Shown piece after piece: positions 57,749 through 64,000 of a stretch of DNA of 64,000 nt. Where the stretch lies: contig CAXXNF010000001.1 in assembly GCA_963666365.2 (NCBI GenBank), positions 1,056,001-1,120,000 of the forward strand, in the 5' to 3' direction. The notes under the pieces were generated by a model. The model saw only the letters and a list, made by a program, of their open reading frames with translations. It had not been told where the DNA came from and did not search any database. Each line of letters begins with the position of its first letter. Positions within the stretch are counted from its first letter, which is position 1. This stretch comes from Syntrophales bacterium (GTDB lineage: Bacteria; Desulfobacterota; Syntrophia; Syntrophales; UBA2210). Position numbers and translations under genes: made by a program.

Positions 57749-58681
57749 GTGGCATTGAAATTGGAATCAGAAAAGGGGTGCATTTACAAAATTCAGCCAT
57801 TGTCAATTCACTTCGGCCCGGGAATACGTACCGCAGTATTTCTGCAGGGCTGTCCCCTGCAATGCCGTTGGTGCCCCTTTCCGGAAGTACGACAGGCAAT
57901 CACTTTTATTGAAAAGAACTGCACCGTCTGCGGTATATGCAGGGATGCATGCCCCGCCCATGCCATCGAAGAGACCGAAGAAGGCGCTGTACGAATCAAT
58001 CAAGACCTGTGCAACGGATGCGGCATCTGCGTGGAACAATGCCCTGCGGGAGCGCTGGAGCAGCGGGGAACATGCTACAGTGTTGAAGGACTGCTGAGGG
58101 AGGTCGAGAAAGGAATCCCCGCATATAGACACTCCGGCGGAGGAGTCACGGTAGGCGGAGGCGAACCGGCTCTTCAGGCAGAGTTTGTTGCGACCTTTCT
58201 TCAGCAATGCAGAAGACACAGCATTCATTCCGCAGTCGAGACTCGCGCCTTCGGACCCTGGCACAAGATAGCCACGATAGCTGAGTGGCCCGATCTTTTC
58301 TACATCACACTCTCATGCATCGACGACAAGGCACACAGAGAAGCAACCGGCGTATCCAACCAATCGATTCTCCACAATATCCGGAAAGTTGCGGCTGAAC
58401 GCCCTGTTATTCTTCGCGTGCCCATATTTCCCCACACAAGCGGTCTGGATGAAACCATTCGAGATATCGCCAGCTTTACCAAAAGCCTCGGCACGAATGT
58501 ACACTCTATCGAACTGTTCTTCCGGCCCGAGGCTGCCGCCGAAAATGGGTGTGGATTAGCACAAAGTGCTCATGACGGTCAAAAGACGCCATATTATGAA
58601 GAAGACACCGCGTCTGCACTGAAAGACCTTTTAGAATCTCACGGGGTGCATGTCCGCATTGACGGCTGGAAAGGAGGCTAG
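57749..58681 (+). CDS. Glycyl-radical-enzyme activase-like radical SAM protein with 2x[4Fe-4S] insert (divergent)
   Basis: GPGIRT.VF..GCPLQCRWC, CTVCGICRDACP, CNGCGICVEQCP, GGGVT.GGGEP, TGVSN, RVP. The start may be TTG57761. Confidence 0.85.
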   Translation: MALKLESEKGCIYKIQPLSIHFGPGIRTAVFLQGCPLQCRWCPFPEVRQAITFIEKNCTVCGICRDACPAHAIEETEEGAVRINQDLCNGCGICVEQCPAGALEQRGTCYSVEGLLREVEKGIPAYRHSGGGVTVGGGEPALQAEFVATFLQQCRRHSIHSAVETRAFGPWHKIATIAEWPDLFYITLSCIDDKAHREATGVSNQSILHNIRKVAAERPVILRVPIFPHTSGLDETIRDIASFTKSLGTNVHSIELFFRPEAAAENGCGLAQSAHDGQKTPYYEEDTASALKDLLESHGVHVRIDGWKGG

Positions 58682-58871
58682 ACAAATGATGCATATAGGG
58701 ACGCTGCGTGAACGCTGCGGCACACATTACCTGACGTACGAAACAGATATATACCATATAATGAAGGTGAGTCCATCCTTGCGGACCAGGGGATGATCAT
58801 CATCGCATAATGGGGATTTCCTGCAGTTGTAACAAATGAACCATTTCTTATGACAATGGAGTGTAATCGTA

Positions 58872-60530
58872 ATGGAACGCATTTGGATGAAAAATTGGCC
58901 GGAGGGTGTATCCACCACCATAGAGTATCGTCTCGGCGAAAAACCCCTGCACGAGTACCTGCTGCAGAACGCCAGGGATTTTCCCGACAAAACGGCCTAT
59001 ATCTTCTACGGCAGAGAGATCTCCTGGGGAGAACTGGCAGACTTCGCCACGCGGTTCGCCAATTATCTGCACAGCGCAGGAGTGGTGAAGGGAGAGCGGG
59101 TTGCCCTTTTCATGCAGAATTGCCCCCAGTATGTCATTGCTCATTTCGCAACGCAGATGCTCGGCGCCATCGTGACCCCTTGCAGCGCCATGTTCAAGGA
59201 ATGGGAGCTGGAATACGAACTCAACGATGCCGGCGCCAAACTGCTGGTTACCACCGACGATCTCTATCCCATTGCCGAGAGAATCAGGGGAAATACAAAC
59301 CTTGAAAAAGTGGTCCTCACGAGCTATCGTGACATGATCCCCTCAACACCGACACTTCCCCTTCCCGCGGAACTTGAACAGGAACACATGGTCTATCCCG
59401 ATACGGAATTGTTGATGGAAATTATCGAAAGCTGTCCCGCAGAGATCCCTTCCTGTGATATCGATATATGGAACGACGTGGCCATGATGATCTATACCTC
59501 AGGGACCACGGGCCGACCCAAGGGGGCAATGCTGACCTACGGGAACGCTCTGGCAACGGTTGCTTCCGCCGTCCAGGTCAAACGACTCCGGATGGACGAG
59601 ATAGCGATTGCGGTCATGCCGATCTTTCATATCGCCGGGAACCTCCTGGGACTTTGCACTCCCGTCTACTCCGGCGCCACAACAATGCTTCTCACCCGCT
59701 TCGATCCAAAAGCCATAGTGGAAGCCTTTGCCAGGTATCGTTGCACCACGTGGTACTCTGTGACGCCAATGCTCCTGGCCATCATGGCACTTCCGGAGGC
59801 GAAGGAGATAGACTGGAGTTCGTTGCGCCATACGACCTGCACGAGTTTCGGCGTGCCGCTTACCGAAGACATTGCGACCCGGTGGCGGGAATTTACCGGA
59901 GGAACACCGGTACTGGAAGGCGGGTACGGCCTGACGGAAACGCATACAGGCGACACCTTTATTCCTGAACGCAATATAAAGTGGGGTTCTAACGGCATTC
60001 CCACCTTGGAGACGGATTTGAAGATTGTCGATTCCTTATCGGGCCAGGAACTGGGAGTAAACGAAAAAGGGGAGATCGTACTCCGCAATCCCGGCGTATT
60101 CAAGGGATATTGGAAAAACCCGGAACGGACAGCGGAAACGCTCAGGGACGGCTGGGTGTACACCGGCGATATCGGATATGTCGACGAAGACGGAATTTTG
60201 TGGTTCCAGGGTCGCATGAAAGAGATGATCAAGTGTTCCGGATACAGCGTGTTCCCGGAGGATGTGGAAGTGATGCTCGTCAAGCATCCTGCGGTGGCCC
60301 AGGTGGCCGTGATCGGCATTCCCGATCAGGTGCGCGGAGAGAGCGTAAAAGCCTTTATTGTGCTCAAACCGGAGTATAAAGGAAACGTTACAGAGTCAGA
60401 CATTATTGCCTGGTCAAAAGAAAAGATGGCCTCTTACAAGTATCCCCGCGCCGTGGAATTCAGAGACAGCCTGCCCGCTTCCGGGGCAGGAAAGATTCTG
60501 CGGCGGTTGTTGAAAGAAGAGGCTAAATAG
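58872..60530 (+). CDS. Acyl-CoA synthetase (long-chain fatty acid--CoA ligase family)
   Basis: YTSGTTGRPKG, GYGLTE, TGD, GKILRR. Confidence 0.94.
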   Translation: MERIWMKNWPEGVSTTIEYRLGEKPLHEYLLQNARDFPDKTAYIFYGREISWGELADFATRFANYLHSAGVVKGERVALFMQNCPQYVIAHFATQMLGAIVTPCSAMFKEWELEYELNDAGAKLLVTTDDLYPIAERIRGNTNLEKVVLTSYRDMIPSTPTLPLPAELEQEHMVYPDTELLMEIIESCPAEIPSCDIDIWNDVAMMIYTSGTTGRPKGAMLTYGNALATVASAVQVKRLRMDEIAIAVMPIFHIAGNLLGLCTPVYSGATTMLLTRFDPKAIVEAFARYRCTTWYSVTPMLLAIMALPEAKEIDWSSLRHTTCTSFGVPLTEDIATRWREFTGGTPVLEGGYGLTETHTGDTFIPERNIKWGSNGIPTLETDLKIVDSLSGQELGVNEKGEIVLRNPGVFKGYWKNPERTAETLRDGWVYTGDIGYVDEDGILWFQGRMKEMIKCSGYSVFPEDVEVMLVKHPAVAQVAVIGIPDQVRGESVKAFIVLKPEYKGNVTESDIIAWSKEKMASYKYPRAVEFRDSLPASGAGKILRRLLKEEAK

Positions 60531-60592
60531 CCATGGGCACGCACCGATTGAAGTGGGTGATGGCGCCACATTACATGATGTGAAGGTAAGAG

Positions 60593-62176
60593 ATGAACTC
60601 TACAAAGGATCAGCACAACACAACCTGGCTTCCCGAAGTCGAGGAGCTTCGTTTACGCAGCAAACTGGCAACACAGATGGGCGGGCCGGAGAGTCTTGCG
60701 AAGTATAAAGCCGGCGGCAAGTTGAACTGCCGGGAACGAATAGAAATGCTGCTTGATAAGGGAAGCTTCCATGAAACCGGAGCGATTACGGGAATTCCCA
60801 CTTATGAAGGAGGCCGTCTCTTTGCCTTGCGGCCTTCCAACTATATTTTTGGAACGGGAAGAATCAATGGCCGCAAAGTAGTGGTGGGCGCCGACGACTT
60901 CACCATTAGAGGAGGCGCTGCCGATGCCAAAATCGGCAACAAAGGACCCTATTCGGAGCAGATGGCTCTCGAGTTGCGTCTTCCCATCATTCGCCTGATT
61001 GACGGCACGGGGGGAGGCGGAAGCGTAAAATTTCTGGAAATAATGGATCGCACCTATGTTCCCGCCAATCCAGCCGTTGCCACAATGGTGGAATTACTTT
61101 CGACCGTACCCGTCGTGTCCGGCGCTATGGGGTCTGTCGCGGGGCTGGGGGCGGCACGGACCGTCTTTTCTCACTTTTCGGTGATGCCCAAAAAAACGGC
61201 CCAGCTCTTTGTTGCCGGCCCGCCTGTGGTGGAACCTGCAATCGGGCGTAAGATCAGCAAGGAAGAACTGGGCGGTTCTGAAATCCAGACCAGGGGATTC
61301 GGCGCGGTGGACAACGAGGCCGAATCGGAGGAAGACGCCTTTGAACAAATTCGACGCTTTCTTTCCTACCTGCCCGATTCGGTGTACGAAATGCCGCCGG
61401 TTATTGAATCTACCGATTCTGCAGAGCGCCGCGAAGAAGAACTTCTCCGCATCATTCCGAGGAATAAGCGCCGCTCCTACCAGGTACGACGGATTATATC
61501 CCTGGTCCTTGACAGGGAATCCTTTTTTGAAATAGGGGCAAAGCACGGAACCTCCATCGTAACAGGATTTGCGCGGCTTTCCGGAAAGCCTGTCGGGGTC
61601 ATTGCCAATGATCCCAGATTCTTCGGAGGAACCATGACGGCGCAGGCGGCGGACAAGATTGTACGTTTCATCGACACCTGTGACACCTTTCATCTCCCCA
61701 TCGTCAATTTCGTTGATCTTCCCGGTTTTCTGATCGGTCCAGATGGAGAAAAACAGGCCACTATCCGCTTCGGCGCCCGTTACATGTTTGCCGTCTGTCA
61801 GGCGACTGTTCCCTGGTGTTCAGTTATACTGAGGCGGGTTTTCGGAGTGGCCGGTGCGAATCACGGCAATACGGGAAGACTTAATTTACGCTATGCCTGG
61901 CCTTCGGGGGAATGGGGGTCCCTGCCTATCGAAGGCGGCGTTCAGGCGGCCTACCGTCGTGAAATCGAGGCCGCTGACGATCCGGAGGTCCTGCGAAAGG
62001 AGATTGAAGCCCGTCTGTCCAAAGCCACGTCGCCCTTTCTCACGGCGGAGGCCTTCGGCATTGAAGACGTCATCGATCCTCGCGATACACGGCCTTTGCT
62101 GTGTGACTGGATCGAAACGGCCTATCGCCTGCTTCCGAGCGAGCTGGGTCCGAAGAAAAGAGGGATGCGGCCCTGA
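60593..62176 (+). CDS. Acyl-CoA carboxylase/decarboxylase carboxyltransferase subunit
   Basis: GKLNCRERI..LLD.GSF.E, DFTIRGG, EELGG, DLPGF, IDPRDTR. Confidence 0.9.
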   Translation: MNSTKDQHNTTWLPEVEELRLRSKLATQMGGPESLAKYKAGGKLNCRERIEMLLDKGSFHETGAITGIPTYEGGRLFALRPSNYIFGTGRINGRKVVVGADDFTIRGGAADAKIGNKGPYSEQMALELRLPIIRLIDGTGGGGSVKFLEIMDRTYVPANPAVATMVELLSTVPVVSGAMGSVAGLGAARTVFSHFSVMPKKTAQLFVAGPPVVEPAIGRKISKEELGGSEIQTRGFGAVDNEAESEEDAFEQIRRFLSYLPDSVYEMPPVIESTDSAERREEELLRIIPRNKRRSYQVRRIISLVLDRESFFEIGAKHGTSIVTGFARLSGKPVGVIANDPRFFGGTMTAQAADKIVRFIDTCDTFHLPIVNFVDLPGFLIGPDGEKQATIRFGARYMFAVCQATVPWCSVILRRVFGVAGANHGNTGRLNLRYAWPSGEWGSLPIEGGVQAAYRREIEAADDPEVLRKEIEARLSKATSPFLTAEAFGIEDVIDPRDTRPLLCDWIETAYRLLPSELGPKKRGMRP

Positions 62177-62271
62177 TGTCGGGTGGAATGCGATTGTTTT
62201 CGGCAGCAAGTATGTAAATGAGGTAACAATACCAACAAACCGTAGATAAGGACAAAAAAGGAGGAAACACA

Positions 62272-62422
62272 ATGAAAAAACCATCGGTGGCAGTATTGCT
62301 GGGCATTCTTGTCTGCCTAATGGGTATTACGGCAGGCAGCAGATGCGTCTATGCAGAAAAGAGGTACGTTTCGGCATACTGACCGCCATAAGCGGTCCGG
62401 CATCGCCCTGGGGTATCCCCAA
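62272..62422 (+). pseudogene. 5' fragment of an ABC transporter substrate-binding protein (LivJ/K-like), frameshifted and interrupted
   Basis: RBS AAGGAGG and signal peptide MKKPSVAVLLGILVCLMG. After a 1-nt shift in the A run at ~62357-62360 it reads EVRFGILTAISGPASPWGIP, then intron sequence begins. Confidence 0.7.
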
Positions 62423-63744
62423 ATCTGGGAGGAAGTGGCCTTGCAGCCACCCCCTCCCAACAGAACGGCTCGTACCGGCCAGGTAAGCCGCTCTTCGATT
62501 AGTAACTGAAGTTAAATTCACAAGTCCGTTTTGTGAAATCATGGAAATGGAAAAGACCCTGCCTTCTGAACCACTGAAGATTCATCACAACGTTGACCTC
62601 TCTGCGGCTCACCGATTGCCACTTGTTCATTTTGACCCATACTCTATGAGCTTCCTGGGGTTTGTATCAAGATCGGATCATCATGCTCTGGAATCGCTTC
62701 GGCTTCTTCCACTTTTTCAATTGCATGGAACGGAGTCGGTTCCGTATCCAGGTATCAAGATCGCTGAATATCTTCTTAAATTCCTGAACTCGAAAATACG
62801 CCACCCATCCCCGCAGGTACTCGTTAAGGCTTTGGATCTCTTGATGCATCGACAACAGGTTGTTTCTTCTGGTCAGTTCCCGCACTTTGGCTTTGAACTT
62901 CTTTATTGCCTTTCCGCTGATCCGGATCTTTCCCCTGAGTATCTGGAAACCAAAAAAGGCTACGTCCTTTACCTTTGCGGCCTCGCTCTTCTCCTGGTTG
63001 ACGGGAAGTTTGAGTTCATTTTCAAGATAACGGATCGTTCCTTCCATCACTCGCCCTGCACCTCTTACCGATTTTACCATAATCAGAAAGTCATCTGCCC
63101 ATCGGCAATATCTCAGCCCCCTTCTCTCAAGTTCATGATCCAGTTCGTTTAAGACAATGTTCGACAGCATCGGTGACAGCGGCGATCTCTGGGGACATCC
63201 CTTCGTCGTTTTCTCAAATATCCCCTTATCCATGAATCCTGCTTTTAACGCTCTTGCAATCAGCGTTACCAGCTTCTCATCGGCTATCTTTCTTCGAATG
63301 AGTTTCAGAATCACTTCATGGGGAATTTCGTCAAAGAAGCTCCGCAAATCTATGGATGCACACCTCTCGTATCCCTGCTTTGCATACTTCCGAACCTGTC
63401 CAATGGCCTGGTGTTGGCTTTTCCCTCTCCGAAAACCAAAGCTGGATGCAGTAAAATCAGGATCTAATATCTCTTCGAACACCAGATTCATGCTCTGACC
63501 GACTATGCGATCCATCACTGACGGTATCCCCAGCTTCCGCATCTTCGAGGTTCCTTCCTTCGGTATCAGTACCCGTCGGCTTGGTCGGAAACGGTAGGCG
63601 CCGCTCTTGAGCTTCTCGTGGATGGCTTTAAGCAGCGCCTCCTCGTTTTGCTCGAACGTCTCTACCGTCATCCCGTCTATCCCTGCTGCTCCGGCATTTT
63701 CTTTACATGCCAGAAGCTCGGCTAATGCGCCATGCCAGGCACAC
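62423..63744 (-). mobile_element. Group II intron, class IIC-like, internally deleted
   Basis: 5' end GTGTGCCTGGCATGG at 63744. Short DV AGAGCGGCTTACCTGGCCGGTACGAGCCGTTCT at 62494-62462. DVI hairpin and terminal GAT at 62423. RT/maturase ORF inside. Confidence 0.85.
62499..63715 (-). pseudogene. ltrA: Group II intron reverse transcriptase/maturase pseudogene (no endonuclease domain)
   Basis: GAAGIDG, RKLGIP, SFGFR, DLRSFFD, PQRSPLSP, RWADD, GWVAYF. N terminus is missing, and an in-frame TGA at 62667-62669 precedes a 55-codon continuation ending at TAA 62499. Confidence 0.85.
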
Positions 63745-64000
63745 GTAAACTACCACCGACTTTGTCGGTGGTTTTCTCAAAGACGACAACTCCTGACAAT
63801 GTCATTCGCTGTCGTCCTTCCACAACCTAAGCTGTTCTTCTCGAATCTGTTCCTCTGACTGCTCTCTCACATAATTTCGTATCACGGTACTGTCGATCCC
63901 CACTGTGCTGACAAAGTAGCCCCGCGCCCATATATGCATCCCCCAATATCGCTTGCTCAATTCCGGATACTCATTGCGCAAATACTCCGCACTCTTACCT
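63745..64000 (-). mobile_element. IS200/IS605-family element, right end (runs off the window)
   Basis: tnpA 3' end, subterminal hairpin ACCACCGAC-AAA-GTCGGTGGT (63772-63752), terminal AGTTTAC. Confidence 0.85.
63802..63999 (-). CDS. tnpA: IS200-family Y1 (HUH) transposase TnpA, C-terminal part, absent from the ORF track
   Basis: Hand translation GKSAEYLRNEYPELSKRYWGMHIWARGYFVSTVGIDSTVIRNYVREQSEEQIREEQLRLWKDDSE*, with WARGYF and the catalytic YxxxQ. Confidence 0.9.
   Translation of the reverse strand, partial: GKSAEYLRNEYPELSKRYWGMHIWARGYFVSTVGIDSTVIRNYVREQSEEQIREEQLRLWKDDSE

Follow-up and report, generated by a model that had tools for sequence, protein, structure and literature searches.

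Near the right-hand end of the window analysed here, a 64,000-nucleotide (nt) stretch of the genome of a Syntrophales bacterium (G000:C1:1056001-1120000), an ABC transporter binding-protein gene is interrupted by two mobile elements in the same orientation: an IS200-type insertion sequence (IS) and, at its right end, a decayed intron of group IIC (bacterial class C). The junction between these two elements recurs, to the nucleotide, in other contigs. Features are described as read on the minus strand, and the contig sequence was followed beyond position 64000. In that direction one first meets the 3' part of the binding-protein gene in antisense, and then the hexamer TTGAAT, the IS, the intron, a single T (62422) and the antisense 5' part of the same gene.

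The interrupted gene and the IS200-type element

The 5' part of the binding-protein gene (62272..62422, plus strand; ATG at 62272) specifies a signal peptide and the first ~52 codons. The remainder of the gene lies past the end of the window, beyond the left end of the IS, and its distal part shows a Pfam match to the Peripla_BP_6 family (2.5e-38). The ortholog in the sister genome G001, a protein of 397 amino acids with 72% identity, aligns across the insert (residues 1-31 in frame 3, then 28-52 and, on the far side, 52-397, both in frame 2) without loss of a residue; the IS and intron together have therefore neither removed nor duplicated host sequence. The total insert comprises 1950 nt (62423-64372, or the same interval shifted by one T). 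The gene also carries a -1 frameshift at an A run near 62355 (62340-62360, plus strand), between the signal peptide and the mature part of the protein, and at this position there is no indel relative to separately assembled Logan contigs.

The IS is 628 nt long and its sole gene is tnpA. The coding sequence runs from 64245 to 63802 on the contig (minus strand; 63802..64000 in the window), is intact, and specifies a Y1/HUH transposase of 147 amino acids, which matches Pfam Y1_Tnp at 5e-41 and in which HVH and GYFVST motifs are visible. The stop codon is the TGA at 63804-63802. The right end of the IS (63745..63772, minus strand) consists of a 9-bp hairpin (63772-63752), with arms ACCACCGAC (63772-63764) and GTCGGTGGT (63760-63752) around an AAA loop, followed by AGTTTAC (63751-63745); the DNA minimum free energy (MFE) of the 45 nt preceding the intron junction is -10.0 kcal/mol. 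The left end, which possesses two hairpins, was located at 64371/64372, directly after the host hexamer TTGAAT. Two other placements of this boundary, one at 64365 (the edge of the BLAST match) and one based on 18 conserved-looking nt, were ruled out by the host ortholog. The initial annotation had given the tnpA stop at 63802, the right-end hairpin, AGTTTAC and a IIC-type 5' end at 63744, and all of these coordinates hold; the left end of the IS and the rest of the binding-protein gene, which it expected past 64000, are indeed found there.

The boundaries of the IS were defined by aligning, with their flanks, five copies from genome G014 and one from G023. All six are free of the intron and end ...GGTGGTAGTTTAC followed by T. 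Since these copies end AGTTTAC and then T, GTGTGCC is not part of the IS, a possibility that the initial annotation had entertained, and the true right end is fixed at 63745. The left flank is TT(A/G)AAT in 7/7 IS copies, and the subterminal left- and right-end hairpins are kept in seven copies; terminal inverted repeats are absent. Insertion took place on the 3' side of the short conserved TT(A/G)AAT and duplicated none of it, as the G001 ortholog closes over the insert. The T which follows the intron (62422..62422, minus strand) is either the last base of the IS (TTTAC-T) or the first base of the host, and is likely the nucleotide of intron-binding site 3 (IBS3); in both cases the intron sits either exactly on the right cleavage site or 1 nt within it. 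A scan with the right-end 16-mer gave at least 56 hairpin-bearing matches, in 52 of which T comes next (52/56) and in one of which the 5' end of an intron comes next.

Three distant Y1 transposase paralogs are present in G000 at C1:380801-381179 (split into two high-scoring segment pairs), C1:862800-863138 and C2:2163400-2163771, with 29-43% identity to the window TnpA. Two other loci (L179 and L269) carry a long perfect palindrome, GTAAACTACCACCGAC-N3-GTCGGTGGTAGTTTAC, each arm of which is formed by the right-end 16-mer; it may derive from the IS end and retain nothing but the hairpin.

The integrity of the assembly was examined with Logan contigs from two runs, which span 63744/63745, 62422/62423 and the left junction of the IS by 65-67 nt each and match the assembly without a single difference or indel; a further run with the same species label (X17) gave no matching contig. 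A misassembly at 63744/63745, about which the initial annotation was wary, is not seen, the joint being crossed by separately assembled contigs. Two further Logan joints (with skips of 980 and 730 nt and sides of 35-36 nt) look like the introns of other organisms that share domain V, and were not used. In both runs from the source sample the depth over domain V (window 62443-62523) is ~80-fold above that of the flanks, and over window 63793-64329 another variant of the IS, with 77 differences in 537 nt, reaches ~5 times the depth of the window IS. This excess suggests co-resident organisms with related introns and IS.

The intron relic

The intron occupies 62423..63744 (minus strand, 1322 nt) and keeps both of its true termini on either side of an internal deletion of ~0.83 kb. 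Its terminal GTGTG (63744-63740) matches both the GUGYG rule and the conserved start of domain I (GTGTGCCTGGCATGG..., 63706..63744, minus strand), of which the first ~36-38 nt remain before the deletion joint at TGGCA (63712-63708). Positions 1-36 equal positions 1-36 of a related intron, L014, at 34/36 sites, and the 5' end was aligned with six relatives as well; the 5' ends of relatives read GTG(C/T)GCC(G/T)GGCATG.... Positions 41-1322 match L014 865-2153 at 72.6%, so that ~828 nt present in L014 are absent; the missing part comprises all but a fragment of domain I, domains II-III, and the beginning of the reverse transcriptase (RT) gene. TGGCA is common to both sides of the joint, L014 having CTTCTGGC at ~30 and CATGGCA at ~860. 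Full-length relatives measure 2059-2233 nt in seven of the eight cases measured, the other (L020) being 3070 nt.

The last ~100 nt, which hold domains V and VI, align with 13/13 relatives. Domain V (GAGCGGCTTACCTGGCCGGTACGAGCCGTTC; 62463..62493, minus strand) possesses an AGC triad and a 2-nt bulge in a pairing read by eye, and is shared without change by 10 of the 13 relatives, the exceptions being L017, L026 and L027 with 1-5 differing positions. Domain VI (62423..62458, minus strand) is a fully paired helix which has CCTCCC in its 3' strand where all 13 relatives have CCTACC, the branch-point A having become C. The intron ends ...CCCAGAT; the initial annotation had the intron end in GAT at 62423, directly followed by the antisense of the binding-protein gene, as is the case.

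The RT/maturase remnant (62502..63706, minus strand) contains RVT_1 (1.9e-31) and GIIM (1.6e-21) domains and no endonuclease domain. Its best match in the PDB is the GsI-IIC RT (6ar1; 1.2e-86, from chain residue 20); the other top matches are the IIC RTs 7uim, 5hhl and 5hhj, while LtrA (4.9e-38) and a IIB RT (1.4e-32) are far behind. By its RT sequence, then, the window intron is a bacterial class C (IIC) intron. Relatives of the RT at 62-74% identity were found at 25 loci. The Rfam model RF02001 (domains I-IV) matches 6/8 of the relative loci scanned, several hundred nt upstream of the open reading frame (ORF), and RF00029 gives only 25 bits in one relative. As judged by the N-termini of relatives, ~15-20 N-terminal codons of the RT have been lost, and an in-frame TGA at 62669-62667, three substitutions away from the relatives, replaces their AG(F/Y).

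Because domains I-III are essentially gone, the element is a relic of a IIC member and not a working one. The initial annotation had implied a complete intron; what lies here is an internally deleted, non-functional relic, with ~0.83 kb lost, a stop codon in its RT and its branch point changed. The reading of GTGTGCC as a chance match upstream of a 5'-truncated intron, which is what the silence of the Rfam models and the start of the RT ORF ~40 nt after GTGTG might indicate, was ruled out by the full-length relatives. No intron DNA was found by DNA search in 40 related genomes, though the IS is present in several.

Recurrence of the junction

The joint ...GGTGGTAGTTTAC|GTGYGCC was found in 13 other contigs, 11 of them metagenomic and two from genomes. 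In 5/13 a tnpA gene lies upstream on the same strand, as in L290 (84% identity to the window TnpA), L291 (73%), L286, L288 and, as a fragment, L284. In L292, left-end and right-end hairpins occur within ~260 nt (about 1170-1429) with no gene between them and a IIC intron at the site; this looks like a mini-element of the kind termed palindrome-associated (PATE) or miniature inverted-repeat (MITE) transposable elements. Four contigs (L296, L289, L294 and L295) have the hairpin without tnpA, and two more are too short upstream to tell. In L285 the IS occurs in tandem, another copy of it starting with its left end ~20 nt past the 3' end of the intron, after TTTAAT.

The introns at this junction are diverse. 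RT identity to the window intron is 81% in L290 and L286 (both full length, ~2.1 kb), 66% in L285 and 31-43% in L287, L289, L291 and L295. In a maximum-likelihood tree of the RTs the window intron groups with L290 and L286 (support 99/100), L285 stands apart, and L287, L291 and L295 fall in a distant clade. Since the tree separates introns that share the junction, at least three IIC clades have reached this IS end. The initial annotation had proposed that the intron used the hairpin of the IS end as its target and landed at, or within a few nt of, the junction of IS and host; the insertion between TTTAC and T and the recurrence of this junction support this.

Other members of the phylum were examined through an RT search of 401 genomes, which gave matches in 13 genomes, our own included. 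Six of those loci have a readable 5' exon. In three of them the intron lies behind the right end of a different IS200, in one behind the same hairpin without tnpA, and in two behind other hairpins. The most extensive case is the genome G265 of the same phylum, in which six of nine intron 5' ends follow the right end of another IS200 (five with full tnpA and one with a truncated tnpA), one follows a tnpA-less copy of that IS200 hairpin and two follow unrelated hairpins. Counted from the side of the target, 14 such hairpins exist in G265, seven of which are occupied, six free and one at a contig end; among tnpA-bearing IS copies the intron occupies 6/10. All of the free copies read ...GTGAC (or GGAC) then T, which mirrors the TTTAC+T of the window IS.

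A wider sample was collected with a pattern for the window-type 5' end, a pattern that excludes the intron types of L290 and G265; it yielded at least 124 5' exons (122 distinct). Among the distinct 5' exons listed, 87 of 122 have a hairpin with an MFE <= -8, most of them terminator-like. The number of unpaired nt after the stem ranges from 0 to 18 with a mode of 6 among those listed, and is seven at the window site. A second recurrent target motif, which is not terminator-like, was observed as well: 8/120 distinct IIC 5' exons end CGCTGA-N(3-16)-CGT, the motif lying in the last 45 nt before the intron (L068, L071, L102, L109, L112, L122, L141 and L152). By record title, five of these eight are Gammaproteobacteria (the class itself or one of its members), and L109 is from Syntrophales.

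Several results weigh against the account favoured here, in which an intron entered the end of an IS that already lay in the gene and then decayed. The 13 contigs were retrieved with a pattern that requires the joint, and attest recurrence only, with no frequency. No tnpA homolog stands upstream of any of the 124 IIC 5' exons listed in the pattern-based sample, and ordinary terminator-like hairpins precede the intron in eight further members of the same RT lineage whose 5' exons can be read. The host itself offers no test, as blastn and tblastn show both the IS and the intron to be single-copy in its genome. In the window copy the region of the exon-binding sites (EBS1 and EBS3) is deleted, so that its pairing with TTAC and T cannot be read there, and the candidate EBS1 of the IS-associated relatives, GTGA, pairs with TTAC by way of one G-U. 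None of the Rfam group II models, RF02001 and RF00029 among them, matches at E<=1 in 58000-64000. The GC skew is locally weak (-0.0115 in the window), and agreement of the intron with one particular strand has even odds by chance. Finally, both Logan runs derive from one sample, probably the source of the assembly, and constitute a separate assembly and not an independent sample.

Set against these points are the 13 contigs, the seven of nine introns in G265 and the closest RTs, L290 and L286. The initial annotation had considered a lineage of introns specialised on IS200 ends. The enrichment at IS ends is seen, although eight members of the lineage follow terminators, and "specialised" is too strong a word; because other relatives follow ordinary terminators, the right ends of IS200 elements are a strong, not an exclusive, preference. 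The broader proposition, that several class C lineages regularly home to the right-end hairpins of IS200/IS605 elements and of their gene-less derivatives, exactly at the nucleotide cut by the Y1 transposase, is put forward tentatively, the balance tipping slightly to the side of doubt.

Order of events and relation to known systems

The locus is very probably the product of three nested events: entry of the IS into the binding-protein gene, entry of a IIC intron into the IS end, and decay of the intron. In the first, an IS200-type element would have entered the binding-protein gene just 3' of TTGAAT without target duplication. In the second, a class C intron would have reverse-spliced into the same strand 7 nt past the right-end hairpin, between AGTTTAC and T, with the hairpin, a short IBS1 (TTAC) and IBS3 (T) presumably serving as its target and being handled like a transcription terminator. 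In the third, a deletion of ~0.83 kb between two TGGCA pentamers would have removed domains I-III and the RT start, and the RT would have gained its stop codon and the branch-point A have become C.

According to PMC3522654 and PMC7306698, class C introns insert downstream of terminator stem-loops, using EBS1 and EBS3 pairings only. The right end of the IS supplies a comparable site, with a 9-bp stem and seven unpaired nt, of which TTAC are the last four, before the T. Of 13 aligned relatives, 11 have T directly after the intron and two (L024 and L025, where the intron end is less clear) have C; T also follows the intron in L285, L290 and L298. A covarying tetramer in relatives (column 230) is a candidate, tentative EBS1 and fits 4/4 in eight of 11 5' exons. 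The intron and tnpA share their orientation. On C1 the first 1.3 Mb have a negative GC skew, whose cumulative minimum falls at 1.30 Mb, and owing to the position of this minimum the minus strand here would be leading-strand sequence, that is, lagging-strand template. The lagging-strand template is thought to be used by both IS200/IS605 elements and endonuclease-less introns, and it is there that single-stranded hairpins are exposed; the second event would have used this strand.

The reverse order would have the intron arrive first, after ...CTTGAAT in the binding-protein gene, and the IS later land at the exon/intron boundary by way of TTGAAT. The IS does insert 3' of TT(A/G)AAT in seven of seven copies, this hexamer adjoins it in the host, and the way the host gene closes over the complete insert fits both orders. 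However, no hairpin stands before that site in the binding-protein gene, in contrast to the 87 of 122 IIC 5' exons mentioned above; the IS would have kept its terminal T before the intron, whereas the joint reads TTTAC|G; and chance landings do not explain a joint which recurs in 13 contigs with unrelated flanks and seven times in G265, where occupied and intron-free copies of one IS have otherwise identical ends. The chance that the intron came first is accordingly very slim. A different proposal, that the IS and intron form one mobile unit, comparable to an IStron but with a group II intron, in which TnpA moves both and the intron is cargo on the right, draws on the clean outer boundaries of the composite in the host gene, on the at least six IS-plus-intron copies in G265 whose TnpA is 98.7-100% identical in the ~750 nt read upstream of the intron, and on the similar identities to L290 of TnpA (84%) and RT (81%). 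Against it, no hairpin resembling the right end, nor AGTTTAC, follows the 3' end of the intron. For IS608-type TnpA the right cleavage site must be a few nt from the hairpin, which likewise counts against a single unit. Intron-free copies of the same IS share the right end, and introns of at least three RT clades (identities as low as 31-43%) occupy the site, which is also used on tnpA-less hairpins (L296/L214, L317 and L292); this proposal is judged highly improbable.

An assembly chimera joining the two elements has a negligible probability. Both elements are repeats in the source sample, the depth rises over domain V and the IS, and repeats invite misjoins; against this stand the Logan contigs from two runs that span all three junctions, the identical joint in 13 unrelated public contigs and a host reading frame that closes exactly over the insert. 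The remaining alternative concerns the timing of the deletion only and is compatible with three nested events: the RT may have jumped templates at TGGCA, from the RT start region to the 5' end, during insertion, leaving a copy that was dead on arrival. A joint within a shared TGGCA together with exact intron termini would result from this or from a later deletion. Replication slippage between 5-nt repeats gives an identical joint, and the further damage (the nonsense codon in the RT, the change of branch A to C and the loss of 1 nt from an A run) indicates prolonged decay, so that a template jump is considered unlikely, if a good deal less so than the other alternatives.

The nearest known systems are the terminator-following IIC introns B.h.I1, O.i.I1 and GsI-IIC (PMC7306698 and PMC3522654), with which the window intron shares an RT/maturase without an endonuclease domain, a GUGYG 5' end, a short domain V, insertion a few nt 3' of a stem-loop and, presumably, a very short IBS1 and a single IBS3 nucleotide. 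It differs in that the stem-loop is the right-end hairpin of an IS200, recognised by a Y1 transposase, and not the terminator of a host gene, in that the insertion point is within 1 nt of the IS boundary, and in that this copy is internally deleted. The IIC-attC introns likewise take a single-stranded recombination hairpin of another mobile system as their stem-loop (PMC7923331). In the present case the target is an HUH/Y1 transposon end and not an integron cassette site, and relatives also use terminators. A preferred site within a multicopy IS, giving many targets and transfer between genomes, is likewise a property of RmInt1 in ISRm2011-2, and may be compared with the occupation of 6/10 IS copies in G265. 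RmInt1 reportedly belongs to class D and is said to find its site by long pairing of EBS1/EBS2 with the IBS inside ISRm2011-2. Here, in contrast, recognition is presumed to depend on the hairpin's shape and 4+1 nt, and the site is the extreme end of the IS.

IStrons too join a self-splicing intron to an element of the IS200/IS605 family; in them (PMC4227781 and 10.1101/2023.11.20.567912) a group I intron has the genes and ends of the IS inside it or at its borders, and the whole transposes. The arrangement in the window is unlike this, as the initial annotation held: the RT identifies a group II intron, it lies outside or 1 nt inside the IS end, and the existence of intron-free IS copies with the same ends implies that the two move separately.

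According to PMC7923331, group II introns, attC sites and an IS200/IS605 element cluster together as single-strand-dependent elements; in PMC7306698, class C introns are described as indifferent to their neighbourhood through following terminators and as showing only a slight preference for mobile-element neighbourhoods. A full-text search found no paper on IIC introns at the right ends of IS200/IS605 elements; the supplementary neighbourhood tables of PMC7306698, which lay outside that search, may bear on the matter.

The window intron itself is a dead relic inside an already broken transporter gene, and a function is not likely. What the junction indicates about its family is that the stem-loop rule also makes IS200-type ends attractive and, in some genomes, dominant targets, as in seven of nine introns of G265 and in the 13 contigs; frequent homing of class C introns to such right ends would be a modestly new variation on known class C behaviour. 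If it is real, the intron would parasitise a transposon and gain a multicopy, horizontally mobile target. It would at the same time part the hairpin from the right cleavage site in the DNA, or abut that site, and, to go by the position of the joint, may hinder TnpA and could freeze the IS copy; in relatives that bear TnpB it could split the guide-RNA scaffold from the guide unless spliced out. The question is thereby raised of whether an intron at the right cleavage site of the transposase immobilises the IS, and a link is drawn between two mobile elements that both depend on hairpins of single-stranded DNA.

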